Source of the DNA: an uncultured Alphaproteobacteria bacterium
Lineage (GTDB): Bacteria > Pseudomonadota > Alphaproteobacteria > Rhizobiales > Xanthobacteraceae
Direction: 5' to 3'
Assembly (NCBI GenBank): GCA_963749625.1
Contig: CAVVNY010000011.1
Location: 28,294 to 92,293, forward strand
Length of the DNA: 64,000 nucleotides
Shown: piece after piece, positions 17,990-36,434 of the stretch
Numbering within the stretch: the first letter of the stretch is position 1
Layout of the letters: every line of letters starts with the position of its first letter
Program-made: the position numbers and the translations under genes
Notes under the pieces: model-generated
Databases searched by the model: none
What the model saw: only the letters and a program-made list of their open reading frames with translations
What the model was told of the DNA's origin: nothing

Positions 17990-18208
17990 ATGAATGAAAT
18001 CGAAACATTGAACGCCCGCATCGACACGCTGGAAACGCGCGTCGCGCACCAGGACCGCATGTTGGAGGATCTCAATGCCACGATCACGGCGCAGTGGAAG
18101 GAGATCGAGAACCTGACCCGCCAGATCGCCCGGCTCGGCGATCAGTTGCAGGAGGTGCGCGATAGCGCGGCGGTTGAGGGACCGGAACCGCCGCCGCCGC
18201 ATTACTGA
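17990..18208 (+). CDS. slyX: SlyX family protein
   Basis: LETRVAHQD..LEDLN coiled coil; C-terminal PPPHY. Confidence 0.88.
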   Translation: MNEIETLNARIDTLETRVAHQDRMLEDLNATITAQWKEIENLTRQIARLGDQLQEVRDSAAVEGPEPPPPHY

Positions 18209-18308
18209 TCCGCCCGGAATGATGCCCGGCCGTCCAGGCCTCACCCATTTTAATTTTCGGCCAGAAACGCTACAGCATCGGGGTAACAAATGGGGGAGGA
18301 GTGACCCG

Positions 18309-19091
18309 ATGCTTTCCGAGGCTGACCGCAACAAGGCCGCGGATATCCTGATCGCCGCGCAAAAGGAGCGCAAACAGGCGATCCAGTTACACGTCACCTT
18401 TCCCTCGATCACCATCGAGGACAGCTACGCGATCTCCACCATCGTAGCGGAGCGCAAGATCGCCGCAGGCGCCAAGCTGATCGGCCACAAAGTCGGTCTG
18501 ACCTCGAAGGCGATGCAGCGTTCTTCGATGATCGACGAGCCGGATTACGGCTACATCCTCGACGACCAGATGATCGCCGATGGCGCCAAGGTGAACCACG
18601 CCGATTTCTGCAAGCCGCGGGTCGAGGTCGAACTCGCTTTCATCATGGGAAAGCGCCTGCAGGGTCCCGGCGTCGGCCTGACCGACGTGCTGCGCGCCAC
18701 CGAATATGTCGTGCCGGCGATCGAGATCGTCGACGCCCGCATCCAGGATCAGCGCAAGATCGTCGACACGGTTGCCGACAACGGCGCCGCTGCCGGCATC
18801 GCGCTCGGCGGTCGGCCGGTCGGGCCGATGGATGTGGACCTACGCTGGGTCGGCGGCATCATGTACCGCAATGCCGAGATCGAGGAGACGGGGCTGGCCG
18901 CCGGCGTGCTCGGCCATCCCGCGCTCGGCGTCGCCTGGCTCGCCAACAAGATCGGCCCGCACGGCCATGCGCTCGAGCCCGGCCATATCGTGCTCGCCGG
19001 TTCCTTCACCCGCGTCGTGTTCGCGCAAAAGGGCGATACGCTGCACGCCGATTTCGGTACGCTCGGCGGCATCGCCATTCAGTTCGTTTAG
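18309..19091 (+). CDS. hpaH: 2-oxo-hept-4-ene-1,7-dioate hydratase
   Basis: [40 protein letters not shown]. Confidence 0.88.
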
Positions 19092-19164
19092 CGCATGATC
19101 CCGAAAAGCTTGTCCTCGGACTTGATCCGTGGATGGGAACCGGTTTTCGGATAAGATCATGCGC
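19091..19164. repeat. Palindromic dispersed element, copy 2, with a nested 25-bp hairpin
   Basis: Same arms as copy 1 with CTTGTCCTCGGACTTGATCCGTGGA inserted at 19109-19133. Confidence 0.85.
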
Positions 19165-19181
19165 AAAGAAAGGTAACCGTC

Positions 19182-19952
19182 ATGCCGGAAATGCCACGCA
19201 ACGCCTTCAAGCACGCGCTCGCCGCTGGAAAATTGCAGATCGGCCTGTGGTCGAGTCTGTGCAGCAATATCGCCGCCGAGATCATCGGCAACTCGGGCTT
19301 CGACTGGATCCTGCTCGACACCGAACATTCGCCCAACGAAATTCCCGGCCTGGTCACGCAATTGCAGGCGATCCAGGCCGGCACGGCGTCGCCGATCATC
19401 CGCCCGGCGTGGAACGACGCGGTGCTGGCGAAGCGCTGCCTCGATATCGGCGCACAGTCGCTTCTGTTTCCCTACGTGCAGAATCCCGAGGAAGCGAAAC
19501 GCGCCGTCGCCTCCACGCGCTATCCGCCGCACGGCATCCGCGGCGTGTCGGTGGCGGCGCGCGCCAGCCGCTATGGCCGCGTGCCGGGCTACCTGACCAA
19601 GTCCAACGCCGAGATCTGCGTGCTGGTGCAGGTGGAGACCGCGCCCGCGCTCGCCCAGCTCGAGGCCATCGCCAGCGTCGAGGGCATCGATGGCGTGTTC
19701 ATTGGGCCGTCCGATCTTGCCGCTTCGCTCGGCCATCTCGGCAATCCGCAACATGCCGAGGTGCAGGCGGCCATGCAGGACGCGGTCAAGCGGTTGAAGA
19801 AGCTCGGCAAACCCGCCGGCATCCTTACCGGCAACGAAGAGGAGGCCCGCCGCTATATCGAGTGGGGCTATCTGTTCGTGGCGGTCGGCGCCGATGTCGG
19901 CCTGCTGGCCAAGAGCGCCGATACGCTGGCCAAGAAGTTCAAGGCCGGCTAG
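19182..19952 (+). CDS. hpaI: HpcH/HpaI class II aldolase
   Basis: DTEHSPN, KRCLDIGA, QVET, FIGPSDL. Confidence 0.88.
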   Translation: MPEMPRNAFKHALAAGKLQIGLWSSLCSNIAAEIIGNSGFDWILLDTEHSPNEIPGLVTQLQAIQAGTASPIIRPAWNDAVLAKRCLDIGAQSLLFPYVQNPEEAKRAVASTRYPPHGIRGVSVAARASRYGRVPGYLTKSNAEICVLVQVETAPALAQLEAIASVEGIDGVFIGPSDLAASLGHLGNPQHAEVQAAMQDAVKRLKKLGKPAGILTGNEEEARRYIEWGYLFVAVGADVGLLAKSADTLAKKFKAG

Positions 19953-19959
19953 GCGGCGT

Positions 19960-20824
19960 TCATTTCGCCGACAAGTAATCGCGCGTCGCCTCGCCGTATT
20001 GAGCGGCGCGCGTGAGGGTGCTCATCAGCGCGCTAGACGCTACATTCTTGAGCTGGCCTGGGCTGGTGCCTTCGCGCAGCGCTTTCATCGTATCGTAGAC
20101 GGCTTGCACTGCGGCCATGATCGGTGCGTGGCCCTGCAGCGAAATTCGCACGCGCTGGGCTGCAAGATCGGCGCCTGCGAGGTCGCCGCCGACATTGCCG
20201 AGGATCAGCGGCAATTTTGTCGCGGCGGCGACGGCAGCAAGATCCGCCCGGCTTTTCAGTCCGACGATAAAGAGCGCATCGACGCCGGCTTTTTCGTAGG
20301 CGCGTCAACCGCGCCACGGTGTCGTCGATGTTGGAAATTACTGGCGCGCTGGTGCGGCCGATGACGGCGAAGGCTTGATCGGGACGCGCGGCGAGCGCGG
20401 CGCGCATCTTGCCGACGCCTTCTTCCAGCGAAATCAAGCCCGCATTTCCATTGGCGCCGAACGGCACCGGCAAAATCGTGTCTTCGATCGTCGCCGCCGC
20501 AACGCCGACGGTGGCGAGTTCCTCGATGGTGCGAGCGACGTTCAAGGCGTTGCCGTAGCCGTGATCGGCATCGACCAGCAGCGGCAGGCTCATGGCCCGG
20601 CAGACGCGCTGGGCTTGCTGGGCAAATTCGGTCGCCGTCAGCAGCACCAGGTCGGGGGCGCCGAGCACCGTCAGGGAAGCCGTCGACCCGGCCATCATGG
20701 CGAACTCGAAGCCGAGATGTTCGGCAATGCGTGCCGACAGCGGGTCGAACACCGAGGCCGGGTGAATGCACTTGTTGCCGCTCAATATCGCGCGAAATTG
20801 GTCGCGGCGGGCCCGCCATTGCAT
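19960..20824 (-). CDS. Isocitrate lyase/PEP mutase family, oxaloacetate decarboxylase-like; +1 frameshift near 20302
   Basis: SVFDPLSARIA, DADHGYGNALNV, TIEDT; removing one base restores RLT-AYEKAGVD through to the stop at 19960. Confidence 0.82.
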
Positions 20825-21059
20825 CAGATTTCTCCTATATCTTGACCCGGATCCTGTCCGGCTTGGGCGAACGGAAATTTCCCTAGGTTCGTCGGTGGAA
20901 TGTCGAGGGCCGTCGCTCGTCCGGCCATATGAAACGGCAGCGAATCAGCATACACGGCATGAGTAGTCCACAATTTGTGCGTCGGCGTCATTCTGCCCCT
21001 GCTGAGCCGACAGGTCTCATTCGACCGCCTGCCGGTTCGGCGCTCGCCACGGACCACGC

Positions 21060-21296
21060 ATGCCGGCTATGCCAGGCGCGCCTCGCTTCGACGAAATATC
21101 GCGGAAATGGCTTGCTTTTGCCGAGCGGCGGCTGGCGCATTTTGCCGAGCTTTATCGCAGCGGCCGTTGGCAGCGCTACTACACCAAGGAGAGCTTCGCC
21201 TTGCTGATGCATGACGTAATCGGCGCGGTGAAGGCCTGGAAACGGCTGGCTCCCCCGCCGCCGGCCGCCGACAAGACCCGACCCGCATACCGTCGA
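21060..21296 (+). CDS. TIGR03809-like small protein (reads through in frame into cytochrome c)
   Basis: KWLAFAERRLAHFAELYRSGRWQRYY. Confidence 0.7.
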
Positions 21297-21620
21297 ATGA
21301 AAGCCCCTGCGGCAGTTTTTGCGTTGGCGCTGGGCATGACGGCGCTGGCGCAAGCGGCCGCCGCCGCCCCCGATCTCAAGCGCGGCGAAGCGCTGCTCAC
21401 GCGCGCTTGCGGCTCCTGCCATGCGGTCGGCCGCGGCGACAGCGCCGACAAGGGCGCCCCGCCGTTCCGCACGCTCGGCCAGCGCTATCCGGTCGAAGAT
21501 CTGGAAGAAGCCTTGGGCGAGGGCTTCATGTCCGGACATCCCGACATGCCGGAATTCCAGTTTGACGCCGACGACGTCGGTGCCATCATCGCCTATCTGA
21601 AATCGATCCAGCAGCGCTGA
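21297..21620 (+). CDS. Monoheme cytochrome c
   Basis: Signal peptide MKAPAAVFALALG, CGSCH, GHPDMP Met ligand. Confidence 0.88.
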   Translation: MKAPAAVFALALGMTALAQAAAAAPDLKRGEALLTRACGSCHAVGRGDSADKGAPPFRTLGQRYPVEDLEEALGEGFMSGHPDMPEFQFDADDVGAIIAYLKSIQQR

Positions 21621-21624
21621 GCTT

Positions 21625-21673
21625 GCGCATGATCCCGAAAAATGGGAACCGGTTTTCGGAAACGATCCTGCGC
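21625..21673. repeat. Palindromic dispersed element, copy 3
   Basis: GCGCATGATCCCGAAAAATGGGAACCGGTTTTCGGAAACGATCCTGCGC. Confidence 0.85.
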
Positions 21674-21713
21674 CGGCAATAGGGCCCGCTGCCACCTTCG
21701 AGTTGTCCATCCC

Positions 21714-22814
21714 ATGACCAGTACGCTGTTCTCGCCTTTCTCCTTGGCCGGCCTCGAACTTGCCAACCGCATCGTGGTCGCGCCCATGTGCCAGTATTCG
21801 GGCGACGACGGCTGCGCCAATGATTGGCACATGATGCATCTCGGCATGCTGGCGAATTCCGGTGCCGCGCTGGTGGTGGTGGAGGCGACCCATGTCGAGC
21901 GCCATGGCCGCATCACGCATGGCTGCCTGGGGCTTTATTCTGATGACAACGAAGCGGCGCTGGCGCGCGTCATCCGGCAAGTGCGGCGGCTCGGCACTGC
22001 CAAGTTCGGCATCCAGATCGCCCATTCCGGCCGCAAGGGCTCGGCGCAGCGGCCCTGGGAAGGCGGCGGCTCACTGCCACCCGACGCCGATCCGTGGCCG
22101 ACGATTGCCGCCTCGCCGATCCCGTTCGGCGCCGGCTGGCACACGCCGCGCGAAGTGACGGAAGCCGATATGGACCGCGTGCGCGCAGCTTTCGTCTCCG
22201 CCGCGCAACGCGCGCTGCGCATTGGCTTCGACGAGATCGAGCTGCATTTCGCGCACGGCTATCTGGCGCACGGCTTCATGTCGCCGCTCTCCAACAAGCG
22301 CACCGACCAATATGGCGGCTCTTTCGAGAACCGCCTGCGCTTTCCGCTGTCGATCGCGCGCGCGGTGCGCGCCGTGGTGCCAAAGGGCGTACCGCTCGGC
22401 GCGCGCATCACCGGCAGCGATTGGCGCGAGGGCGGGCTAACCGCCAACGATGCGGTGGCCATTTCCAAGGCGCTCAAGGCCGAGGGCCTCGATTTCATCT
22501 GCATCTCGTCCGGCGGCGTCGCCGCCGACATCCGCAACCCGACCGAGCCCGGCTACAACGTGCCGATCGCCGCGCGGGTGAAACGGGAGGCCGGGATTGC
22601 CACGCGCACCGTCGGCCTGATCATCAAGCCCGAACACGCCGAAGCGATCGTGGCGAAAGGCGAGGCTGACCTCGTGTCGATGGCGCGCTGCTTCCTCGAC
22701 GATCCGCATTGGGGCTGGCACGCCGCCAAGGCGCTCGGCGCCGATGTCGCCCGCCCGCCGCAATATGCGCGCGCCGGACCCAAGCTGTGGGCGCCGGCTG
22801 CTGCGAAGGCCTAG
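21714..22814 (+). CDS. NADH:flavin oxidoreductase (old yellow enzyme family)
   Basis: NRIVVAPMCQYS, QIAHSGRK, HFAHGYL, NKRTDQYGG. Confidence 0.93.
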   Translation: MTSTLFSPFSLAGLELANRIVVAPMCQYSGDDGCANDWHMMHLGMLANSGAALVVVEATHVERHGRITHGCLGLYSDDNEAALARVIRQVRRLGTAKFGIQIAHSGRKGSAQRPWEGGGSLPPDADPWPTIAASPIPFGAGWHTPREVTEADMDRVRAAFVSAAQRALRIGFDEIELHFAHGYLAHGFMSPLSNKRTDQYGGSFENRLRFPLSIARAVRAVVPKGVPLGARITGSDWREGGLTANDAVAISKALKAEGLDFICISSGGVAADIRNPTEPGYNVPIAARVKREAGIATRTVGLIIKPEHAEAIVAKGEADLVSMARCFLDDPHWGWHAAKALGADVARPPQYARAGPKLWAPAAAKA

Positions 22815-22817
22815 CGG

Positions 22818-23663
22818 TTGGAAAACCTCGTCTTCCTTGCCGTTCTGTTCGCGGCGCTCTGCCATGCAGGCTGGAATGCGCTGATCAAGATCGGGCTCGA
22901 CCCGCTCTCGACCACTACGCTGATTTCGATCGGCTCCGGCGCGGTGGCGCTGGTGTTGCTGCCGCTCGTCGGCTTGCCGGCCTCAGCGGCCTGGCCTTGG
23001 CTGATCGCATCCGTGATCATCCATCTGTTTTATTTCGCCGCGTTGATCGAAGCCTACCGTACCGGCGATCTCGGCCAAGTCTATCCAATCGCGCGCGGCT
23101 CGGCGCCGCTGATGACGGCGACGGCAACCACCTTCTTCGTCGGCGAAAAACTCAGCCTCATCGGCTGGGCCGGCATCGTCGCGCTGGTGGCCGGCGTGTT
23201 CCTGTTATCGGCGCGCGGCGGCCGCGATCTGGTCAAGATCGACCGCCGCGCCGTCGGCTTCGCGCTCATGACGGCGCTCACCATCTGCGCCTATTCGGTG
23301 GTGGACGGCATCGGCGCGCGGCTTGCCGGCAACCCGAACGCCTATTCGCTTTCACTGTTCGTCGGCATTGCGCTGGTGATGGTACCTTACGCGCTCTACC
23401 GCGACGGCCGCGACGTCCTTCCGGCGATGCAGCGTTATTGGCGGCGCGGGCTCGCCGGCGGCGCGCTGCAAACGTTGTCCTATGCCATCGCGCTGTGGGC
23501 CATGACGCTGGCGCCGATCGCCATCGTCGCCACCTTGCGCGAGACCAGCGTGTTGTTCGGTGCGGCGATCGCCGTCGTCGTCCTCAAGGAGCCGCTGCGC
23601 CTCACGCGGATCGGCGCCGCGTTTATGATCCTGTGTGGGTTGGTGCTACTGCGGCTGCAGTAA
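22818..23663 (+). CDS. EamA/DMT family transporter
   Basis: HAGWNALIK, VYPIARG, LRETSVLF; about 10 TM segments; TTG start. Confidence 0.9.
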   Translation: MENLVFLAVLFAALCHAGWNALIKIGLDPLSTTTLISIGSGAVALVLLPLVGLPASAAWPWLIASVIIHLFYFAALIEAYRTGDLGQVYPIARGSAPLMTATATTFFVGEKLSLIGWAGIVALVAGVFLLSARGGRDLVKIDRRAVGFALMTALTICAYSVVDGIGARLAGNPNAYSLSLFVGIALVMVPYALYRDGRDVLPAMQRYWRRGLAGGALQTLSYAIALWAMTLAPIAIVATLRETSVLFGAAIAVVVLKEPLRLTRIGAAFMILCGLVLLRLQ

Positions 23664-24284
23664 TCAAAGCGCCAGCTCCGGAAATACCTTTTCGCAACGG
23701 GCAAGATCAGCTTCGGTGTCGACGTCCCACAGCACCGGCAGTTCGATGGCCTTAAGGTCAAGGGCAGCAGTACGCGCCCGCGTTTCCTGCGTGACTGACG
23801 CGGTGCCCCAGGTGATCCCGTCGAACAGGCGCAGGTGGGCGGCGCGCGCCCCGATCAGCACGTAACCGCCGTCCTCGGCCGGCACCAGGACGACCTCGGC
23901 CTCGGTCAGCGCCTTGGCGGCGGCGCGCAAAATCTCCGCCGTGAAGGCCGGGCAATCGGTGCCGATCACCAGCGTCGGGCCGTTGGTGGCGCCGATCGCG
24001 CCCAGCATGCGGTCGCCGAGATCGCCGTCCGGCTGCTGTTTGAGGACGATCGGAAACCGCGCCGCCAGATTCTGAAACGAGGCATGCGTAAAATCCGGCG
24101 TGCACCACAGCGTCACCGGGCCGATATCGGCGGCCACCGCCGTTTCGACCGTGCGTTCGGTTAGCCGCTCCTGCAGCACCGCCGCCGCATGCGCGCCGAT
24201 CGAAGGAATCAGGCGTGTCTTGGCCAGGCCAGGCATCGGCGCTTTCGCCAGGATGGCGATGGCGACCGGACTAGCGTTCGGCAT
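23664..24284 (-). CDS. TIGR04282/DUF2064 family (glycosyl/nucleotidyltransferase fold, ArsS-cluster associated)
   Basis: AKAP..G.AKTRL, Q..GDLG.RM, IGTDCP, PAEDGGYVLIG, WDVD. Confidence 0.88.
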   Translation of the reverse strand: MPNASPVAIAILAKAPMPGLAKTRLIPSIGAHAAAVLQERLTERTVETAVAADIGPVTLWCTPDFTHASFQNLAARFPIVLKQQPDGDLGDRMLGAIGATNGPTLVIGTDCPAFTAEILRAAAKALTEAEVVLVPAEDGGYVLIGARAAHLRLFDGITWGTASVTQETRARTAALDLKAIELPVLWDVDTEADLARCEKVFPELAL

Positions 24285-24954
24285 AGCCGTAAGCTTGCGC
24301 GAGGTGGATCGGATCGGCGCCAAAATAAAAAGCGAGCCGCAGCTTCCACATCAGCAAGATGGTGCGCAGCACGCCATGCCGCTGCCAGCGCCGCGCCGAG
24401 GTGGTGACGCGCGCGGCAAGGCAAAGCGGTCGCCTGATGCGTTTGAGCCGGGCCGAAAGCGCGACGTCTTCCATCAGGGCGATCGGCGGAAAACCGCCCG
24501 TGTCCTCGAACGCCGCGCGCGTCATGAACATCGCCTGGTCGCCGGTGGCGATGCCGGTGGCGCGCGAGCGCCAATTCATCATCGTTGCGACCCAAGCGAG
24601 CAGGCCGCCGCCGTCGAAACGTACGTCGAAGCGCCCCCAGCCGCGGCCGGAACGCGCGAGGCCGTCGCACACCAGCCGGTCGGCATTTTCCGGCAGCCGC
24701 GTGTCGGCATGGAGGAACACCAGCACGTCGCCGCACGCGGCCGCGGCGCCCGCATTCATTTGCGTCGCGCGCCCGCGCGGCGCCGACAGCACGCGGTCGG
24801 CGAGCGGACGCGCCAAGTCGGCAGTGCCGTCGCGGCTGCCGCCATCGACGACGATCAGTTCGACGCCGCGGGCGCGATAGGGCGCCAGCGCCGATAGCGC
24901 TGCTGCGATATCCGCGGCTTCGTTGAGCACCGGCATGACGATGGAGAGTTTCAT
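24271..24954 (-). CDS. TIGR04283 family GT2 glycosyltransferase
   Basis: SIVMPVLNE, VVDGGSRD, QMNAGA, FLHADT, TGDQ, LMED, TSARRW. Confidence 0.9.
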   Translation of the reverse strand: MKLSIVMPVLNEAADIAAALSALAPYRARGVELIVVDGGSRDGTADLARPLADRVLSAPRGRATQMNAGAAAACGDVLVFLHADTRLPENADRLVCDGLARSGRGWGRFDVRFDGGGLLAWVATMMNWRSRATGIATGDQAMFMTRAAFEDTGGFPPIALMEDVALSARLKRIRRPLCLAARVTTSARRWQRHGVLRTILLMWKLRLAFYFGADPIHLAQAYGYAER

Positions 24955-25908
24955 GGCCCCGCCGCCTGCGCGATCCGGTAGTCCGGCCCGTCTCATGATG
25001 CGCGCATGATATGACGCGTATGCGGGCGTGCCCCGCGGCCAGCGCTTTTGGAAGCGGCCGAGAAAGGCGTCGTGATCATAGGGCAGGGCAATGGCGTCGA
25101 TGTGAACGCCGCCGCGCTCAACGCCATAGAGACGCGGATGCGGCGACACTGCGGTGGCGATGCGCGTGACCAGACCAAAGCGCGTGCCGCTGAAATTCGG
25201 CATACCGGCGGCGCCATTGTTGATGATCGTCAGCCGCCCGTGCGCAAACGAAAAATCGCGCAAGGCGGCAAGACATGTGTGGGTCGAAGCGAAAACGTCG
25301 ACTTTCGCCGCCGCGTGCACGTCGCCAAGCCAGGTCCGCCGCTTCGGATTGTCGAGCTCGTCATGGGCAAAGCGCCAGCCAGCGAGCGCCCCCGCGTCGC
25401 CATGTACGATGCCGATACGCAAGGGCCCGACCGTCGCCACCAGATGCATTGGCAGGCCGGCAAGCCGTCCGCGCGCTGCGGCCGGCGCTGCTCCTTGCAG
25501 CAGCGCGAGAATCTCATTCGAGCGCGCCACCACGTCGCCCGGCACGCTCGGCGGATAGGCGCAGCCGCAGCCGGCGCCGATGTCGCCCGGCCGGGCGATT
25601 TCCGTCTCCACATTGCCGCGCAGCGCCGTATGGTGCGTGACGCGCCGTTCGACGCTTGCGAACCACTCCGGCTCGGCGTCGAACCAATGATAATCGCCGT
25701 TGAAAACGACGCGAGAGGCACCGCGTTCGGCCGCCGTCAGGCGCTCGACCGCATCGAGCGCGGCAAGATTGCCGTAGATCCCGCCCACGACATAAAGCGT
25801 GTCGGTGGTCAGATCGGCCGGCCGGTCGAACACCGATGGCGCATAGGTGTAGTCGACCGGGCAGACCCGGCCGGCGGCAAGCCATTCGGTTGCGGCGCCG
25901 GCGTTCAT
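24951..25908 (-). CDS. Degenerate calcineurin-like metallophosphoesterase-fold protein; +1 indel near 24993 fuses it to the next gene in the ORF track
   Basis: GGIYGN, FNGD, RGNVE, VHGD, STHTC; removing one base gives IM-DGPDYRIAQAAGP-stop, overlapping the GT start (ATGA). Confidence 0.7.
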
Positions 25909-26876
25909 TCCGCCGCCTGTTCCAAAGCGCCGCCGCAGCTCGAGCCTTGCCCGGCGGTGCAGCCATAGCAGTGGCCGGCGACGCGGATCGGGTTGCCCGC
26001 GATGTCCTCGTCGAGGAGATCGGACAAATGCACGCGCGGGCGCTGGCCCCGTGCCAGCGGAAGATCGAGCATCTGATTGAAGTCGCAGTCATAGACCAAG
26101 CCGCGCCAATCGACCGAAATCAGATTGCGGCACATCACGCCGTCGAGATTGGCGTCAAGATGGGCGTCTTGCAGCAATTGCAGATAGCCATCGAACTCGC
26201 CTTTGTTGATCAATATGGTGCCGAAGCGCTGGATCGGCATGTTGGCGAGCACGAACAATTTGTTGAAGACGATGCCGTAGGTCTCGCCCAGCACGCGCTT
26301 GTAGTCGGCTTCGAGCGAAGCCTGCGGCGGCGGCAGCGCCGGCCCTTGCGGATTGTAGACGAGATTGAGCGTGAGCGCGGAATCGCGCCCGAAGCCGAGC
26401 GCGTTGAGTTTCTTCAGGCCGCGGATCGAGCCGTCGAACACGCCCTTGCCGCGCTGGCGCTCCACATTGTCCTGCAGATAGCACGGCATCGACGCGACGA
26501 CCTCGACGCGGTTCTCCGCCAGAAACTCCGCGAGGTCTTCCTGGCCCGGCTGCTCCAACACGGTGAGATTGCAGCGGTCCATTACCTTGACGCCGAGCTT
26601 GTGCGCGCCGGTCACCAGGCGGCGGAAATTCGCATTGAGTTCAGGCGCGCCGCCAGTGATGTCGAGCGTCGTTATGTTCCGCCGCGCCAGAAAATCGAGC
26701 ACGACGTCGGCGACCTCGGCCGACATCTCCTCGGCGCGGTTCGGCCCGGCGTTGACGTGGCAGTGGAAGCACGACTGGTTGCAGCGATAGCCGACATTGA
26801 TCTGCAGGGTGTCGAGCCGGCCGCGTCGGATGGTGGGGAATGCGATTTTTTCGAGCAGCGGCCGCGTATCGCGCAT
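25905..26876 (-). CDS. arsS: ArsS-type radical SAM protein (arsenosugar-biosynthesis family), Cys variant
   Basis: CNQSCFHC, LDITGGAPELN, MDRCNLT, YDCDFNQM, C-terminal HCYGCTAGQGSSCGG. Confidence 0.9.
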   Translation of the reverse strand: MRDTRPLLEKIAFPTIRRGRLDTLQINVGYRCNQSCFHCHVNAGPNRAEEMSAEVADVVLDFLARRNITTLDITGGAPELNANFRRLVTGAHKLGVKVMDRCNLTVLEQPGQEDLAEFLAENRVEVVASMPCYLQDNVERQRGKGVFDGSIRGLKKLNALGFGRDSALTLNLVYNPQGPALPPPQASLEADYKRVLGETYGIVFNKLFVLANMPIQRFGTILINKGEFDGYLQLLQDAHLDANLDGVMCRNLISVDWRGLVYDCDFNQMLDLPLARGQRPRVHLSDLLDEDIAGNPIRVAGHCYGCTAGQGSSCGGALEQAAE

Positions 26877-26969
26877 GGGAATCCTTGGTTGCCCGCAACT
26901 TGCCACGGGCCGCGCCGCCGCGTCACCCCCACATAAAGTCACATCGAGACAAATCGCCGTGAGCGCGCG

Positions 26970-27884
26970 CTAGGCGGAATCCTTGGGTGAATCGAGGCCG
27001 AGCAGATAGGCCGGATTGGTGTGCGTCATCGTACGAACGTCCTCTTCGCTCATGCCGTGCCGCAGCAGTGTCGAAATGAACATCCGCATGCCTTCTGCGG
27101 GCGAGGGATGGTAGGCGACGCCGAGGTCGGTGCCGAGGACGCATTGCTGCGGCCCGGTGGCGCGGATCATCTCGACCATCTCGGAGGGGTGGATGATGTC
27201 GCGGTGCGCCGGCAGGCAGCAAAGAATGCAGTGCTCGATATAGGCGCCGCGGCGCGCCAGCGCGACGATCTGGTCGCGGGTCAAGGCTTCCTCGACCACG
27301 TGCCGTTCCAGCGCATGCGTGATGATGACCTTTTTCAGGCCGATCCGTTCGCACTCGTCCATCAGCGCGAAGGTTTCCGCCGGCGTCACATGGCCGGTTG
27401 CCAGCACCATGTCGTGCTTCTTGATGGCGGCAATAATTTGGACCGCCTCCGGCAACAGGCGCCCTTCCGCGTCGATCACCTTGAGACCGTCGCTCTTGAT
27501 ATCGAGCCCGAGCGATTTCGATACTTTGCGGATCGAATTCGCCGCGCTGAAAGTCGGCATCCATGCGACCTTGGCGCCAAGCTCAGCTGAACATTCCAGC
27601 GCGTGGATGTTGAGGCCGCCGGCTTCGATGTCGAGGCAGACGCTGGAGACGACTTCGACGTTCGGCGCGAGGCTGCGCGCGGCATGCGCGCACGGCGCCG
27701 TCGGGTACGAATGGCTCTTGAGCACGATCGCGCGCATGCCGGCTTCCTGCGCATGCAGGGCGGCCATGTTGAAGTCGAGCCGGCGCGGCAGCAGCGGATC
27801 GGGCGCGAAATGCAGGTGCATGTCGACCGAACCTGCCAGCAAATCGTTGATCTGCGCGAAGGTCACAAAACGCGATTTGGCCAT
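26970..27884 (-). CDS. Amidohydrolase-fold metalloprotein, DUF6282-like
   Basis: DMHLH, VLKSH, WMPT, LATGH, ITH, GTDLG. Confidence 0.75.
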   Translation of the reverse strand: MAKSRFVTFAQINDLLAGSVDMHLHFAPDPLLPRRLDFNMAALHAQEAGMRAIVLKSHSYPTAPCAHAARSLAPNVEVVSSVCLDIEAGGLNIHALECSAELGAKVAWMPTFSAANSIRKVSKSLGLDIKSDGLKVIDAEGRLLPEAVQIIAAIKKHDMVLATGHVTPAETFALMDECERIGLKKVIITHALERHVVEEALTRDQIVALARRGAYIEHCILCCLPAHRDIIHPSEMVEMIRATGPQQCVLGTDLGVAYHPSPAEGMRMFISTLLRHGMSEEDVRTMTHTNPAYLLGLDSPKDSA

Positions 27885-27982
27885 GGCCAGCCTTTCTCGC
27901 CGCTATCGTGGGTTGCGCACGATCTTAGCCGAAAACCGGCGCCCGCCCAGGGCCCCGTCGGCGGGCTCGGCTCGGTTGTGGG

Positions 27983-28762
27983 CTAGCGCGCGAGCGCGGT
28001 GGCGACCGGGGATTCGACGCCGATGCGGCCAAATCCCGGCAGCTTGACGCCGGGATGGCGCAGATCGAGCCCGGCCACCAGTCCGAACAGGTCGAGTTCG
28101 ATGCCCTCGACCCAGCCAAGCTTCACGGCGGCGAAACCGTACACGTTGATCTCCACGCCGGTGCCGCTGTCGGTGCGCCCGGCATAAAAGCGGTCGCGGA
28201 AGTCGCGGCCGACCGCGTTCGGCGGCAGCGCCACGCCGAGTTCCGGCACCGCACGCAGGATCGCCGCGGTGAAGCTGTTGCTGTTCGGGCCCGGCCAGAT
28301 GCGGTAGTCGCCGGCCCGGTTGAACCGATAGGCCTCGACCGCCGCCTCGATGCGCGGGACCAGCTTTTCCGCGTCGGGTCCGGAAACATCGGCGATCGCC
28401 ACCGGCCTATTGCCGAACCAGAGGCCATCCGGCGGCCAGCCGTTGGTGCGCACCGGGTTGCCCCAGCCGACCACGTCGTAGCGCGTCCATTCGCTAGCGC
28501 CAGCGGGCTTGAGCACGATCCAGCTATGGACCGAGAAAATGCCCTTCCAGGCGCCGGTCGTGGCCGTAAACACCATGACGCGCGCCGGCTTGTTGTCGGC
28601 GGCCTTCGGCAGCATGCCGGTGCTGGACCAGTTGGCATCGCGCCACGAACGCGGGCCATTGCTGGCCGCATAGAGCGCGGCGCGGGCGAGGAGCGGCACA
28701 AGAAATACGGCAACGATCGCAAGCATGATGAGCTTTCGGCGGGAAGGGCGGTTGGCCGGCAT
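27983..28762 (-). CDS. DUF3750 domain protein
   Basis: WKGIFSVHSW, RYDVVGWG, YRIWPGPNSNSF (His/Cys-less NlpC-like arrangement). Confidence 0.8.
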   Translation of the reverse strand: MPANRPSRRKLIMLAIVAVFLVPLLARAALYAASNGPRSWRDANWSSTGMLPKAADNKPARVMVFTATTGAWKGIFSVHSWIVLKPAGASEWTRYDVVGWGNPVRTNGWPPDGLWFGNRPVAIADVSGPDAEKLVPRIEAAVEAYRFNRAGDYRIWPGPNSNSFTAAILRAVPELGVALPPNAVGRDFRDRFYAGRTDSGTGVEINVYGFAAVKLGWVEGIELDLFGLVAGLDLRHPGVKLPGFGRIGVESPVATALAR

Positions 28763-28802
28763 AAGATGCAGATAGGGACGCATTCCGGCTGAAAGGTGGC
28801 GG

Positions 28803-30143
28803 TCAGCTCACCTGGTTGCCGCTGATCTTGAGCTGCGGATAGCGTTCGGCGCCGGAAAGTGCGAGGTCGCCGGTCGCCGGCTTGTGCCATTCCATGCCGA
28901 CAATGGCGCCATGCGGGGTATCGCTCAGCACATTGCCAGAAATCACCGCCGTGCCGGCGCCGGCGACCACCGATACGGCGACGCCGATGCCGCTGGCGCG
29001 CACCACATTGCCGGTGATCGCGACATTGCGCAGAAACTCGCCCCAGCCGGCGCTGATGCCGGCGGTCTGCGCGTTCTCGATGACATTGCCGGCGACCGCG
29101 GTGTCGGCTTCGACGCCGATGCCGAAGCCTTCCGTCTCCGGCGCGGTGCCGGGAATGTGCGCTTTGCAATTGCGCACGACATTGCCGCGCACGCTGGCCA
29201 GCCGTCCGCCTTCCTTGAAATTGGTGACGGAAATTCCGCTGCCGGCGCCGTCGATCACGTTGTCGGCGATCACCGCGCCCTGAAATTCGAATTCGCAATA
29301 GATCGCCACCTCATCGAGCGCGAGGCAGTTATTGCCGAGGATCTGAATCTCGGACGCCGCCGTGCCGCGAATCGCCGAAAAGGCCGCGTTGCGGATGTGG
29401 TTGCCGCGCACGATCACGTTGCCGGCGCGGAAGACGTTGATGGCGTTGCCGTTCTGCCCGCTGCCGCCGCTGCGCGCGCTCGTGTCGTCGATGCGGTTGT
29501 CGGCGATCAGGCTGCCGTCCTGGCGCTTGGCGCTCTGCCAGACGCGGACGCCGCCATTGCCGGATTTTGCAATCGTGTTGGCCACGATCATCAACCCGTC
29601 GCAATCATTGCAGTAGAGCGCGTTGTCGGCCGCGCCGGTGATCGTCGAATGGGTCACTTCGCCCGTGCAGCTTTCGAGCGCGATGCCGTTGCCGCCGGCG
29701 CCGGCAATCTCGCAATCGGTAATGCGGACGGCTTTGACGTCGTCGAAATGCGCCAGCGCACGGCCGGCGGGCAGCGTCTGGCCGCCGCCGTCGAGCGTAA
29801 GGCCGCTGAGCGAAATCGTGTCCGCATGCTCGGCGGAAACAAGCGACGGTCCGTGCGTCAGAATAAGTTTTGTGGCGCCGCGTATGCCGGCAAGGCTGGC
29901 GCCGGCCGGCAGCGTGAGACCGCCGGCGCGGTAGACGCCGGGCGCCAGCATCAGCGGGACGCGGCGTTGCGCGGCTTCATTGATAGCGCGCTGCAAGGCG
30001 GCGCTCTGGTCGCCGGCTGCGCCTGCGCGCACGCCGAAATGCGCGGCGTCGAGACCGAAGTTCGACAGCGGCGCGGCTTTCACCGGCGCGGCGAACGCGA
30101 CGGCAAGCGAGCCGAGGACGACGGTGCGGCGGTTAACGCTCAT
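28803..30143 (-). CDS. TIGR03808-like Tat-exported right-handed beta-helix repeat protein
   Basis: NRRTVV Tat signal, DQSAALQRAI pectate-lyase-like start, repeated GN.I units. Confidence 0.85.
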   Translation of the reverse strand: MSVNRRTVVLGSLAVAFAAPVKAAPLSNFGLDAAHFGVRAGAAGDQSAALQRAINEAAQRRVPLMLAPGVYRAGGLTLPAGASLAGIRGATKLILTHGPSLVSAEHADTISLSGLTLDGGGQTLPAGRALAHFDDVKAVRITDCEIAGAGGNGIALESCTGEVTHSTITGAADNALYCNDCDGLMIVANTIAKSGNGGVRVWQSAKRQDGSLIADNRIDDTSARSGGSGQNGNAINVFRAGNVIVRGNHIRNAAFSAIRGTAASEIQILGNNCLALDEVAIYCEFEFQGAVIADNVIDGAGSGISVTNFKEGGRLASVRGNVVRNCKAHIPGTAPETEGFGIGVEADTAVAGNVIENAQTAGISAGWGEFLRNVAITGNVVRASGIGVAVSVVAGAGTAVISGNVLSDTPHGAIVGMEWHKPATGDLALSGAERYPQLKISGNQVS

Positions 30144-30179
30144 GCGCCGCCACTATGCGCCATCCGCGCCCGCAGTGTG

Positions 30180-30801
30180 TTAACGCGCCGCCGCCGCGAT
30201 AACCTTAATCAGCCGCGCACCAAAGCGGGCGAGATCGTCGGCCGACAGGCGCGGCTTGCCGCGGCGAGGCCACGCCTTGCGGCGAATCGATCGGCACATG
30301 CACGAAGGCGGCGACCTGAGGGCTGTCCTTTTTGCCGGCGGCTTCGGCCGCCCGCCAGCACAGATAATTGCAGAGATAACGTCCGGCGTCGTGCGAGCGG
30401 ATGACCGGCACGCGGGCGGCGCGCGCTGCGGCAAGAAGCTGCGCCGTCGGCACCGGCAAAGCGAGCGCCGGCGGACCGCCCGGCGCGATTTTTACGGCGC
30501 GCGCGGCGCCGCCCGCATCCGGCAACAGCGACACCGTGTTGCGTGCGCGCGTCTCGATGCGGATGGTCCTCGCCCGTGGCGCCAGCCCGAACATCAACAG
30601 CGCGTCCGGCCTGTGTTTGGCGAGCAACTTGGGCAGATCGTGGTCGACCGCCGCATAGCTGGTCGGGAAAATATGCGAAACGATTGTCGCGCATGCCAAT
30701 CCCGGCCGCTGTCGCGCCAGTTGCTTGGCCAGCGGTCCGGTCGGATTGAACGGCGCGCCCGGAAACGGCCCAAAGCCGGTGACGAGGATAGTGACAGCCA
30801 T
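30180..30801 (-). CDS. pcp: Pyroglutamyl-peptidase I (C15); +1 frameshift near 30290
   Basis: LVTGFGPFPG..NP, IETRA, AGRYLCN, FVHVP; corrected tail ends ARLIKVIAAAAR. Confidence 0.85.
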
Positions 30802-31787
30802 CACACGCCCAGCAGCAGCGCGATCTCTTCCACGGCGAGCGTCGGCGCCAGTTTTCCTGCGGCGACCGCGGCCTCCGCTGCCTTAAGCTTGCCGCGTACG
30901 GCCGGATCGCTGCGCAGCCGCGCGGTGAGCCGCTCCTCCAGCATCGACCACATCCATTTCACCTGCTGCTCGCGCCGGCGCTGGCTAAGTTCGCCGGAAG
31001 CCGTCATCTTCTCCTTGTGCGAGACGATCTGCTCCCACAACAGGGAAATGCCGTCGCCGGTGAGCGCCGAATAGGTGAGGACCGGCGGCGACCAGTTGGG
31101 CGAGCGCGGCGCCAGGATATGCAACGCGGCGCGATAGTCCGACGCCGCCACGCGCGCGCGGCCGATATTGTCGCCGTCCGACTTGTTGACGGCGATCATG
31201 TCGGCCAATTCGACGATGCCCTTCTTGAGGCCCTGCAATTCGTCGCCGGCGCCCGCCACCATCAGCACCAGAAAGAAGTCGGTCATGTCGGCGACGGTAG
31301 TTTCGGATTGGCCCACGCCGACGGTCTCGACGATCAAGACGTCATAGCCCGCCGCCTCGCACAGCAGCATGGTCTCGCGCGTTTTGGCGGCAACGCCGCC
31401 GAGCGTCCCGGAGGACGGCGACGGGCGGATGAAAGCATTGGGATCAACAGCGAGCCGCGCCATGCGCGTCTTGTCGCCGAGGATCGAGCCGCCGGTGCGG
31501 GTCGAGGACGGATCGACCGCCAGCACGGCGACCTTGTGGCCGTCGCCAGTGAGCGCGGTGCCGAGCGCGTCGATGGTGGTCGACTTGCCGGCGCCGGGCG
31601 CGCCGGTGATGCCGAGCCGCACCGCCTTGCCGGTCGCCGGCAGCAGTTCCTGCACCAGCAGGTGCGCCTGCTTGCGATGGTCGGCGCGCTTGCTCTCGAT
31701 CAGCGTAATGGCGCGCGCCAGCATCGCGCGGTCGCCCGCCCGGATGCCCTGGGCGAGGTCGCTGGCTTTAAGGGTGCGCGCAGCCAT
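30801..31787 (-). CDS. meaB: Methylmalonyl-CoA mutase-associated GTPase
   Basis: GITGAPGAGKST, AVDPSS, ETVGVGQSE, NKSD. Confidence 0.95.
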   Translation of the reverse strand: MAARTLKASDLAQGIRAGDRAMLARAITLIESKRADHRKQAHLLVQELLPATGKAVRLGITGAPGAGKSTTIDALGTALTGDGHKVAVLAVDPSSTRTGGSILGDKTRMARLAVDPNAFIRPSPSSGTLGGVAAKTRETMLLCEAAGYDVLIVETVGVGQSETTVADMTDFFLVLMVAGAGDELQGLKKGIVELADMIAVNKSDGDNIGRARVAASDYRAALHILAPRSPNWSPPVLTYSALTGDGISLLWEQIVSHKEKMTASGELSQRRREQQVKWMWSMLEERLTARLRSDPAVRGKLKAAEAAVAAGKLAPTLAVEEIALLLGV

Positions 31788-31793
31788 CGAATT

Positions 31794-32327
31794 CTACTGC
31801 CGGGACTTGGACGCCGGCGGGTCTTCGAGGCGGATGGCGAGGCCGCCGTCTTGGTAATGCTTCGCCGCGGTGGCGCGGGCCAAGGCGAAGAGCTGGTCGC
31901 GCGTCGCGACGCGGCACGCCTTGCTGGCATTGCCGCAATTGGCCGCGCGCGTCGCCGCGTCGGCATCGTCCTCGTCGATCGCCCGCACCAGATAGACGCC
32001 ATCGGTGAGTTTGCGCATTAGCGCGTATTCGTTGATCTCCGGATGTTTGACCGGCACGTCCTGCACGATGTAGTCGCCGTTTTCGAACGCGTGCACCGAG
32101 AACGCGCGGATGTCGCCCATGCCGCCGCCGGCATGGACGTAGAGCTTGCCGTCCCAGGTAAAGAGCGTCTGCTCCGGGTCGCTGACCAGGCCCTTGCGCA
32201 GCGTGTAAAGCTGCAGCCGCAGCGTCTGCCCGAGCAGCGGCTGCGAGTCGGTGAGGATCGGGCCGGACGAATCGATGCAGCCGGCAAGCGACACCGCGCA
32301 AAGCGCGGCAAAAGCCGCGCGGACCAT
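31794..32327 (-). CDS. Putative lipoprotein
   Basis: Lipobox SLAG-C after a hydrophobic stretch; lies between the mutase and meaB. Confidence 0.75.
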   Translation of the reverse strand: MVRAAFAALCAVSLAGCIDSSGPILTDSQPLLGQTLRLQLYTLRKGLVSDPEQTLFTWDGKLYVHAGGGMGDIRAFSVHAFENGDYIVQDVPVKHPEINEYALMRKLTDGVYLVRAIDEDDADAATRAANCGNASKACRVATRDQLFALARATAAKHYQDGGLAIRLEDPPASKSRQ

Positions 32328-32335
32328 GGAGGATT

Positions 32336-34492
32336 TCACTCTGCCGCCTCTTTTCCGTGGCCCAATCGCTTGTTGAGGGTCTTGAGCAGTTTCTCCGCCG
32401 CCTCGGCGATTACAGTGCCGGGCGGGAAAATCGCCTCGCAGCCTGCCTTCATCAGCGCGTCGTAATCCTGCGGCGGCACCACGCCGCCGACCACGATCAT
32501 GATGTCGTCGCGCCCCTGCGCCGCCAGTTCCTTCTTCAACTCCGGCACCAGCGTCAAATGCGCGGCTGCCAACGACGACACGCCGAGAATATGCACGTCG
32601 TTTTCCACCGCCTGGCGCGCGGCTTCCGCCGGCGTGGCGAACAGCGGCCCGATGTCGACGTCGAAGCCCAAATCGGCAAAAGCCGAGGCGATCACCTTCT
32701 GGCCGCGGTCGTGGCCGTCCTGGCCGATCTTGGCGACCAGCAGGCGCGGCCGGCGGCCCTCCGCCGCCTCGAACGCCTCGACCGCAACGCGCACCCGTTC
32801 GACCGCGCCGGTCATGCCGACCTCCCGCTTATAGACGCCGGTGATTGCTTTGATCTCGGCGCGGTGACGTCCGTACACCTTCTCCAGCGCCGCGGAAATC
32901 TCGCCGACGGTGGCCTTGGCGCGGGCGGCGTCGATGGCCAGCGCCAAGAGATTGCCGTTGCCGCGGTCGGCGGCGCGGGTGAGGGCGCCGAGCGCTTCTT
33001 TCAGCGCTGCCGGATCGCGCTCGGCCTTGAGCCGCCTGAGCTTGTCGAGTTGCATCTGCATGACGGCGGAATTGTCCACCTTGAGCACGTCGATCGGCGC
33101 CTCGTCGGTCGGCTGGTATTTATTGACGCCGATCACCGACTGATGGCCGCTATCGATGCGCGCCTGCGTCTTGGCCGCGGCTTCCTCGATGCGCAGCTTG
33201 GGGATGCCGGCCTCGATTGCTTTGGTCATGCCGCCGAGACCTTCGACTTCCTCGATATGGGCCCAGGCCTTCTTGGCGAGTTCGTAGGTGAGCCGCTCGA
33301 CATAATAAGAGCCGCCCCAGGGATCGACGATGCGGGTGGCGCCGGCTTCCTGCTGCAGCACGATCTGGGTGTTGCGCGCGATGCGGGCGGAGAAATCGGT
33401 CGGCAGCGCCAGCGCCTCGTCGAGCGCATTGGTGTGCAGCGACTGAGTCTGCCCCTGCGTCGCCGCCATCGCCTCGATCATGGTGCGCGACACATTGTTG
33501 AACACGTCCTGCGCCGCCAGCGACCAGCCTGAGGTTTGCGAATGCGTGCGCAGCGACAGCGAGCGCGCATCCTCCGGCTTGAACGGCTTCATCAGCTTCG
33601 CCCAGATCATGCGCGCGGCGCGCAGCTTGGCGATCTCCATGAAATAATTCATGCCGATCGCCCAGAAAAACGATACGCGCGGCGCGAACTGGTCGATTGT
33701 CAGCCCCGCCTTGATGCCGGCGCGAACATATTCGACGCCGTCGGCGAGCGTATAGGCGAGCTCGAGATCCTGCGTCGCGCCGGCTTCCTGCATGTGATAG
33801 CCGCTGACCGAAATCGAATTGAACTTCGGCATTTCGGCGGAGGTGTAGGCGAAGATGTCGGAGATGATGCGCAAGGACGGCGAGGGCGGATAGATATAGG
33901 TGTTGCGCACCATGAATTCTTTGAGGATGTCGTTCTGGATCGTGCCGGAAAGTTTCTCGTGCGGCACGCCCTGTTCTTCCGCGGCGACGATATAGAGCGC
34001 CAGCACCGGCAGCACCGCGCCGTTCATGGTCATCGATACGCTCATCTGGTCGAGCGGGATGCCGGAGAACAGCGTGCGCATGTCGTAGATCGAGTCGATC
34101 GCCACGCCCGCCATGCCGACGTCGCCGGAAACGCGCGGATGGTCCGAGTCGTAGCCGCGATGGGTGGCGAGATCGAAGGCGATGGAGAGGCCCTTCTGTC
34201 CGGCGGCGAGGTTGCGCCGGTAGAAGGCGTTGGAGTCTTCCGCCGTGGAGAAGCCGGCATATTGCCGGATGGTCCAGGGCTGCGCGGCATACATCGCGGG
34301 ATAAGGTCCGCGCAGGAACGGCGCCTTGCCGGGATAGGTATCGAGGAAATCCAGCCCGGCGAGATCGCTCTCGCCGTAGAGCGGTTTCACCGGGATCGCT
34401 TCCGGCGTCATCCACGGCGCGGCCGCCTGCGGGCCGTTTGCGACCGGCGTGTCGGCGAAGTCGACCGTGGCGAAGTTGGGGACCTGGCTCAT
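32336..34492 (-). CDS. scpA: Methylmalonyl-CoA mutase, catalytic subunit
   Basis: [11 protein letters not shown]12-binding [13 protein letters not shown]. Confidence 0.96.
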
Positions 34493-36363: not shown

Positions 36364-36434
36364 CGGCGCAAAGTGCCACAGTCGGTGCGGTGCCGCCATT
36401 GAGCTAAAGCAAATTGCGTGCCCGGCCTATTTGA

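Follow-up and report, generated by a model that had tools for sequence, protein, structure and literature searches.

In a soil bacterium belonging to the Pseudolabrys group, the minus strand of contig CAVVNY010000011.1 contains a removable four-module cassette built around the radical S-adenosylmethionine (SAM) enzyme ArsS; no ArsM gene was found in the genome (24 contigs, 91.6% complete). The cassette lies in the 64,000-nt stretch of this contig that we analyzed (the window). Its second module represents a protein family, here called metallophosphoesterase-like (MPE-like), that is closely tied to ArsS. We see about an even chance that this accessory cassette converts an external arsenical to a 5′-deoxyribosyl ("arsenosugar-type") conjugate, with the MPE-like protein working on the ArsS side of the pathway.

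Organization of the ArsS cassette

The modules are arranged head to tail in the order ArsS, MPE-like module of phosphoesterase fold, TIGR04283 family 2 glycosyltransferase (GT2) and TIGR04282 protein. They are encoded by three minus-strand open reading frames (ORFs) with overlapping stop and start codons, in a region of 62–69% GC.

25905-26876 (alternative GTG start at 26942), minus strand: arsS; TIGR04167, 446 bits; Radical_SAM and DUF3641
24955-25908, minus strand: MPE-like module; Metallophos_2, 18 bits, sub-threshold; metallophosphoesterase fold by AlphaFold2 and Foldseek
24988-24996 (extra base at about 24992), minus strand: site of a one-base insertion, from alignment with relatives' DNA
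24271-24954, minus strand: TIGR04283 GT2 module, 267 bits; Glycos_transf_2, 58 bits; internal ATG at 24954
23664-24284 (alternative TTG start at 24323), minus strand: TIGR04282/DUF2064 protein, 187 bits; CofC/MobA-like nucleotidyltransferase fold

ArsS lies well above the TIGR04167 equivalog cut-off of 300 bits (match 2–303 of 303) and combines a Radical_SAM domain (PF04055, 48 bits) with the Cys-rich C-terminal domain DUF3641 (PF12345, 182 bits). Its translation contains the CX3CX2C radical SAM motif as CNQSCFHC, and it is the all-Cys, non-selenoprotein form. The arsS stop overlaps the start of the MPE-like module in an ATGA at 25908-25905. The GT2 module (residues 321–545 of a fused ORF described below) exceeds the TIGR04283 cut-off of 182 bits with a match of 1–221 of 221, and weakly resembles structures of GpgS, the glucosyl-3-phosphoglycerate synthase. 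Its reading frame overlaps by 14 nt that of the TIGR04282 protein (cut-off 134 bits), which also matches DUF2064 (PF09837, 103 bits), CofC (45 bits), NTP_transf_3 and PDB entry 3cgx (E = 3e-15). A preliminary description of this DNA had made the same three family assignments; the model scores bear them out, and the radical SAM protein does not fall into another family. The GC content at third codon positions (GC3) of the cassette genes, 0.79–0.82, is similar to that of their neighbours. A riboswitch or other RNA element at the cassette was rejected, as an Rfam scan of 21000-30500 gave chance-level matches only.

The layout as such is not special, since NCBIfam already names the ArsS/TIGR04283/TIGR04282 cassette arsenosugar biosynthesis. 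The set, formerly "rSAM/selenodomain-associated," comprises TIGR04167, TIGR04168 (a phosphoesterase), TIGR04169 (AhpD-like), TIGR04282 and TIGR04283, and the three members found in the window are adjacent and all above cut-off. The NCBIfam family description also mentions a phosphoesterase-fold partner, and one is present here. In contrast to the NCBIfam set, the partner here comes from another, unmodelled family, and ArsS has Cys in place of selenocysteine. TIGR04168 and TIGR04169 themselves were rejected as cassette partners, the best matches in the host genome being 14.7 bits outside the cassette (cut-off 200) and 38.6 bits (under cut-off), respectively.

In this assembly the MPE-like module and the GT2 form a single 545-aa ORF (24271-25908). 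The four overlapping, coupled genes of the preliminary description are therefore confirmed in part: all four modules lie on the minus strand where it had placed them, but in three ORFs, with a one-base insertion near 24992. At the insertion site the window reads ATGAGACGG, and its relatives are one base shorter. The relatives' MPE-like protein ends in IMNGPDYRIAQAAGP followed by the stop codon, an ending shared by the closest homologs (89–91% identical). DNA alignment of same-genus loci showed that the MPE-like gene meets the GT2 start by an ATGA overlap at the position equivalent to 24954-24951; the ATG at 24954 is the ancestral GT2 start. The extra base alters the last 14 MPE-like codons and then reads in frame into the GT2, leaving intact both the conserved MPE-like core (up to R303, the last conserved residue) and the GT2's own ATG. 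The N-terminal part has over 4000 homologs in the databases, and among the matches listed the best ones are all free-standing proteins of about 318 aa. As the fused frame was not found in the other genus members examined, it reflects a mutation confined to this strain or else an error of assembly.

The MPE-like family has a remodelled active site

Residues 1–320, the MPE-like module, gave no above-threshold match in Pfam or NCBIfam. The Pfam scores were 18.2 (Metallophos_2, gathering score 27) and 14.5, both below the gathering thresholds, and for three MPE-like proteins close to that of the window NCBIfam returned nothing even at E ≤ 10. A PDB sequence search with the module alone yielded noise only, and a profile search of the PDB with the family gave weak matches to LpxH and Vps29. 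An AlphaFold2 model made from an alignment of the family had a predicted local distance difference test score (pLDDT) of 95.6 and a predicted template modelling score (pTM) of 0.93. In a Foldseek search against the PDB there were 142 matches at E ≤ 0.001, the top 50 listed being all of metallophosphoesterase fold; SapH (3qfn) was the best (E = 1.6e-11, target TM-score 0.71), followed by YfcE-like proteins, Vps29, LpxH and PP5. The phosphoesterase fold proposed earlier for the second gene is thus supported.

Across the 66 diverse members of our alignment A1, the motifs GGxYG, GD, GNxE, CGCAY, HGD and THTC are invariant. The family shares with the YfcE, SapH and LpxH metallophosphoesterases the fold, the Asp of motif II, the Asn of motif III, the His of motif IV and the first His of motif V, whereas it differs from them in having GxY, GNVE, THTC and an invariant CGCAY loop. 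The DxH of motif I is changed to G43-x-Y45 in every member, the GNHE of motif III reads G98-N99-V-E101, with the catalytic His replaced throughout, and the GHTH of motif V reads T-H210-T-C212, where the alignment with LpxH puts C212 at the second His. The metal-2 ligands D72, N99, H169 and H210 are kept; the full dinuclear ligand set of metallophosphoesterases (DxH, GD, GNHE, H, GHxH) is not present in the family. In the loop after motif III, C114-G-C116-A-Y118 is invariant, and C16 is nearly so. Judged from these alignments, the family has lost one predicted metal site and gained invariant cysteines.

The family comprises 950 clusters at 50% identity (E ≤ 0.001) and occurs in at least 566 species genomes. 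Its hosts are mostly Xanthobacteraceae (Pseudolabrys), Burkholderiales, Usitatibacter and Competibacteraceae, with some Acidobacteriota.

The MPE-like gene accompanies the radical SAM step

Gene context was examined in 80 MPE-type loci, extending at most 10 kb to either side of the gene; many of these loci are on short contigs. The neighbours encoded were:

ArsS: 65 of 80 loci
TIGR04283 GT2: 54 of 80 loci
TIGR04282: 44 of 80 loci
DedA(VTT)-fused flavoprotein disulfide reductase, MerA/glutathione reductase (GR)-like: 37 of 80 loci
DUF547: 24 of 80 loci
PhnD-like binding protein: 6 of 80 loci
PhnE-like permease: 5 of 80 loci
PNP_UDP_1 phosphorylase: 3 of 80 loci
ArsM-like: 0 of 80 loci

The MPE-like gene stands directly downstream of ArsS in 57 of the 64 loci holding both, and directly upstream of the GT2 in just 27 of 53. 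Natural fusions join it to ArsS (P0152, P0196), to TIGR04282 (P0154) and, in one member, to a PhnC-like ATPase. Two further clusters, one of gammaproteobacterial type (L120:4662-10633, genome G278) and one in genome G249 (L121), combine an MPE-like gene with a radical SAM gene, a sodium/solute symporter and the DedA-fused flavoprotein reductase. The radical SAM protein of this type of cluster falls short of TIGR04167, and an extracytoplasmic function (ECF) sigma factor precedes the cluster. No homolog of the GT2 or of TIGR04282 was detected by BLAST in L120. Since adjacency tracks ArsS, fusions with ArsS exist and L120 has the MPE-like gene without a detected GT2 or TIGR04282, we conclude that the closest functional partner of the MPE-like protein is the radical SAM step and not the transferase step. 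New here is the documentation of a family that has no Pfam or NCBIfam model and is tied specifically to ArsS.

In an Actimicrobium isolate (L079:6039-8751), genes for a PNP_UDP_1 phosphorylase and a PhnD/PhnE-like ATP-binding cassette (ABC) importer precede the cassette. The ArsS encoded on a contig binned as Bradyrhizobium (L093) is nearly identical to that of L079, which suggests mis-binning or recent transfer.

ArsS cassettes without ArsM are common

A genome search for arsM had been suggested in the preliminary description, and two hidden Markov models and tblastn found none. The best host match to NF008823 scored 59 bits (cut-off 263), that to NF038099 ("AsSugarArsM") 26 bits (cut-off 400), and tblastn queries with four ArsM-like proteins, including one of the same genus, gave at most 53 bits, confined to the SAM motif. 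NF038099 and tblastn were added because NF008823 was silent in the ArsS-bearing control Synechococcus elongatus and was distrusted alone. In this control TIGR04167 and TIGR04168 scored above cut-off and neither ArsM model matched (NF008823 at E ≤ 1e-20; NF038099 over cut-off), so that the organism is a further case of ArsS without ArsM, unless both models miss its ArsM. A hidden ArsM among the host methyltransferases was also rejected, the top candidates being an ArsR-type helix-turn-helix (HTH)/methyltransferase fusion, a PmtA-like protein and UbiE. The fusion, a 355-aa protein joining an ArsR/SmtB HTH domain (76 bits) to a class I SAM methyltransferase (contig C13:190314-191378; L001:1279-2343, minus strand), is the best ArsM-like match in the genome, though a poor one at 59 bits, and has two cysteines only. 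No arsR, arsC or acr3/arsB was found among the annotated neighbours of the cassette, in agreement with the earlier statement that the 64 kb contain neither these genes nor arsM. An operon of arsR, an arsC-like gene of low-molecular-weight phosphatase type and acr3 lies beside gshA on contig C15 (145043-146984; L119), unlinked to the ArsS cassette.

ArsS is present in 15 of the 24 other genomes of the genus, and a strong ArsM-like gene in two ArsS-positive and two ArsS-negative ones. In a phylum sample of 401 genomes, in which kin are not independent, the distribution was as follows.

ArsS present, ArsM-like present: 68 genomes
ArsS present, ArsM-like absent: 41 genomes
ArsS absent, ArsM-like present: 23 genomes
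ArsS absent, ArsM-like absent: 269 genomes

An ArsM-like gene thus accompanies ArsS far above background (68 of 109 ArsS-bearing versus 23 of 292 ArsS-less genomes, kin not being independent). The co-occurrence analysis called for earlier therefore gave an overall association, but ArsS without ArsM is not rare (41/109). In many other ArsS-bearing genomes arsS adjoins arsM, as in one family of small genomes; 16 of the 24 ArsS-bearing families had zero ArsM-like genes in their sampled ArsS-bearing genomes. An ArsS cassette without ArsM is a common condition and no peculiarity of the window; its quantification across genomes is new. The presence of an MPE-like protein was rejected as a general explanation for the absence of ArsM, with the family occurring in 4 of the 401 genomes as against 41 that have ArsS and no ArsM-like gene.

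The ArsS of the window shares 60–64% identity with ArsS proteins whose genes adjoin arsM, and in a maximum-likelihood tree these ArsM-adjacent proteins nest among the ArsS of MPE-type loci. The ArsS of locus L110 is sister to that of L075 (support 100/99). In L110, genes for a flavoprotein reductase, GT2, TIGR04282, ArsS and an ArsM-like protein lie side by side, with a true MerA next door. This pattern argues for a single orthologous ArsS enzyme with a single kind of substrate, the difference lying in where the trivalent methylarsenical comes from. As the ArsS proteins of ArsM-linked and ArsM-less loci interleave on the tree, the substrate is most likely still an arsenical; it is probably taken up from outside. 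The importers and the disulfide reductase of ArsM-less clusters fit an uptake and reduction of dimethylarsenate (DMAs(V)) or methylarsenate (MAs(V)) produced by other organisms of the soil. Of the two possibilities raised in the preliminary description, scavenging of environmental methylarsenicals remains the best fit, and action on a different heteroatom is weakened by this identity and interleaving.

The cassette is a removable unit between fixed flanking genes

The genes next to the cassette are:

22818-23663, plus strand: EamA-family transporter gene, convergent flanking core gene, stop-to-stop with the cassette
26970-27884, minus strand: DUF6282 gene (PF19799, 199 bits), between the DUF3750 gene and arsS; possible cassette member
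27983-28783, minus strand: DUF3750 gene (PF12570, 151 bits), upstream flanking core gene

The cassette is bordered by fixed genes, those for cytochrome c, an old yellow enzyme (OYE) flavoprotein and EamA at one end and those for DUF3750 and a NosD-like protein at the opposite end. In same-genus loci arsS is preceded directly by DUF3750; the DUF6282 gene occurs at this place in the window's genome only, and none of the 80 related loci or of the same-genus loci has it. One relative, G014, has an empty site (L116; C59:2882-6724), where cytochrome c, OYE and EamA are followed by DUF3750 on the opposite strand and the cassette is absent. In another, G008 (L117; C188:6890-10732), a TIGR04282-only remnant lies between DUF3750 and EamA. 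Ten of the 16 ArsS-bearing genomes of the genus have an arsS-GT2-TIGR04282 form with no MPE-like gene anywhere in the genome, among them the genome whose ArsS is nearest to that of the window (93% identity), and in G016 the MPE-like gene is split. The cassette is a removable accessory unit undergoing gain or loss in the genus, and its recognition as an insertion/deletion polymorphism with unrelated flanking genes is new.

EamA stands beside the cassette in 18 of the 80 loci, in Xanthobacteraceae only, and weakly resembles a phosphonate-associated family, below that family's cut-off. As a dedicated exporter it was rejected: in G014 it abuts DUF3750 at the empty site and is therefore a positional neighbour, a core flank and not the product exporter that had been proposed. 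DUF3750 was likewise rejected as a cassette member, since it abuts EamA in the cassette-free G014. At 23663/23664 the stop codons of EamA and TIGR04282 abut with zero intergenic bases, which leaves no space for terminators.

Farther away, 18174-20824 holds an FAA-hydrolase-like gene, an HpcH/HpaI aldolase gene and, on the opposite strand, a gene for a 263-aa protein of the PEP-mutase/isocitrate-lyase superfamily, with no link to the cassette seen. Upstream of the cassette region, 30801-36399 contains, all on the same strand, MeaB, a 181-aa ORF without a Pfam family, methylmalonyl-CoA mutase (32336-34492) and a 636-aa ORF (34489-36399).

Proposed function of the cassette

The ArsM-ArsS arsenosugar pathway is known from Synechocystis sp. 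PCC 6803 (Xue et al., 2019; Cheng et al., 2021, as cited in PMC12159101 and PMC13598754). The cyanobacterial ArsS makes 5′-deoxy-5′-dimethylarsinoyl-adenosine (DDMAA) from dimethylarsenite, DMAs(III) (PMC13598754), and the same chemistry was described by Cheng et al. (2021, as cited in PMC12159101). The window encodes an ortholog of this enzyme (TIGR04167 equivalog with C-terminal DUF3641), which presumably carries out the same 5′-deoxyadenosyl transfer to a trivalent arsenical. Unlike Synechocystis, the present host is a heterotrophic soil alphaproteobacterium in which ArsM was not found and in which the downstream enzymes are gathered in one coupled cassette. Our literature search turned up no publication in which the steps that follow ArsS are assigned.

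In the mechanism that we propose, orthology supports a first step in which ArsS cleaves SAM reductively and adds the 5′-deoxyadenosyl radical to a trivalent arsenical. Because the genome is without a detected ArsM, the methylarsenical would come from an external source, possibly ArsM-bearing soil neighbours. The Cys-rich MPE-like protein, with its oxyanion and metal-2 half-site apparently kept and its metal-1 ligands replaced by Tyr and Cys, would act on the ArsS side of the pathway; it may bind, and perhaps reduce, a pentavalent methylarsenical via its cysteines and pass the trivalent form to ArsS. Adenine would then be removed by an unlinked housekeeping phosphorylase of nucleoside or methylthioadenosine (MTA) type; contig C10 of the host encodes a homolog 51% identical to the cluster-linked purine nucleoside phosphorylase (PNP) of L079. 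TIGR04282 may nucleotidylate the resulting arsenoribose-1-phosphate, and the GT2 may transfer the activated arsenoribose to a small alcohol or lipid acceptor. Such an "activate, then transfer" logic is suggested by the matches to the guanylyltransferases CofC/FbiD and to the GpgS-type GT2, although TIGR04282 and the GT2 score far below the cut-offs of those families. The likely benefit is the detoxification or sequestration of toxic methylarsenicals.

Several observations weigh against this proposal. Within this protein set, experiments cover distant ArsS orthologs only. No importer or reductase gene was found in the window, and the nearest flavoprotein reductase homolog is on another contig of the host genome. 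The MPE-like gene is dispensable in nature, as its absence from 10 of the 16 ArsS-bearing genus genomes demonstrates, and cyanobacterial cassettes have a phosphoesterase of their own, TIGR04168, so that a late-step phosphatase role would be equally conventional.

A more specific version of the proposal, which we regard as unlikely, is that the MPE-like protein is a new arsenical-handling enzyme, a thiol-dependent reductase or delivery protein for DMAs(V)/MAs(V) that would feed ArsS in ArsM-less bacteria, with the DedA-fused flavoprotein disulfide reductase of many of these clusters returning it to the reduced state. The arsenate reductases ArsC and Acr2 are thiol enzymes that evolved from phosphatase folds. 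By analogy, the MPE-like protein also has a phosphoesterase scaffold, an oxyanion site, conserved cysteines and a place in an arsenic pathway, and many of its loci encode a disulfide reductase; it is, however, unrelated to ArsC and Acr2 in sequence and fold, and the parallel is one of hypothesis and not of membership. If true, this would repeat the origin of ArsC and Acr2 from phosphatases and could supply a bacterial methylarsenate reductase, of which we know of no example. Bacteria reducing MAs(V) have been listed with the enzyme left unnamed (PMC11868830).

Alternative explanations

The main rival for the MPE-like step keeps the same pathway but has the MPE-like protein acting late in it as a conventional phosphoesterase, which would make it the counterpart in proteobacteria of cyanobacterial TIGR04168; we give this possibility some weight while considering it well short of probable. 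Here the GT2 might glycosylate a phosphorylated acceptor (e.g., glycerol-3-phosphate, as GpgS/GgpS do) and the phosphate would afterwards be cleaved off by the MPE-like protein, as in the GpgS/GpgP pair. The metallophosphoesterase fold, with SapH and LpxH-type enzymes as top matches, the retained metal-2 ligands D72, N99, H169 and H210 and the weak similarity of the GT2 to glucosyl-3-phosphoglycerate synthase are in line with such a role, as is the finding of TIGR04168 above cut-off solely in the ArsS-bearing control S. elongatus. Every member of the family, however, has the DxH of motif I and the catalytic His of motif III replaced, adjacency tracks ArsS rather than the GT2, and the MPE-like gene is kept in a locus for which BLAST returned neither a GT2 nor a TIGR04282 homolog. 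The fusions speak for both sides: MPE-like is joined to the GT2 in the window and to TIGR04282 in P0154, but the window fusion is due to a one-base indel and is not conserved.

It is quite unlikely, in our estimation, that the heteroatom handled by the cassette is not arsenic (but, e.g., Se, Sb or reduced phosphorus) and that the "arsenosugar" names are a product of annotation transfer. The 41 of 109 ArsS genomes and 16 of 24 ArsS families without an ArsM-like gene would agree with this, but ArsS/ArsM-like co-occurrence (68/109 vs. 23/292, kin not independent) and the intermixing of ArsM-linked and ArsM-less ArsS proteins at 60–64% identity point to arsenic. PhnD/PhnE-like ABC importer genes flank some cassettes, and one MPE-like member is fused to a PhnC-like ATPase; PhnD-family binding proteins, however, also bind arsenic oxyanions (AioX). 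The weak, below-cut-off likeness of EamA to a phosphonate-associated family loses its force because EamA is merely a flanking gene.

Finally, the cassette might be a decaying remnant without current function in this strain, which we judge very unlikely. The genus spans the full cassette, the three-gene form, the remnant in G008 and the empty site in G014; G016 has a split MPE-like gene; the MPE-like 3′ end is frameshifted in the window, and an ArsM to supply the substrate was not found in the genome. Yet all modules are full length and above the curated cut-offs, with GC3 like that of their neighbours, and the indel, which may itself be an assembly error, touches only the last 14 codons, past R303, with the in-frame fusion open and the GT2 ATG kept.

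Significance

Enzymes of arsenosugar synthesis have been assigned just for the first committed steps, those of ArsM and ArsS. The locus is a compact, ArsM-less version of the pathway in a common soil genus, where natural four-gene, three-gene, remnant and empty alleles can be compared. With its remodelled, Cys-bearing active site and its tie to ArsS, the MPE-like family is a concrete target for biochemistry. Our results suggest that many heterotrophic Proteobacteria process methylarsenicals made by others, which is relevant to the speciation of arsenic in soils and rice paddies.

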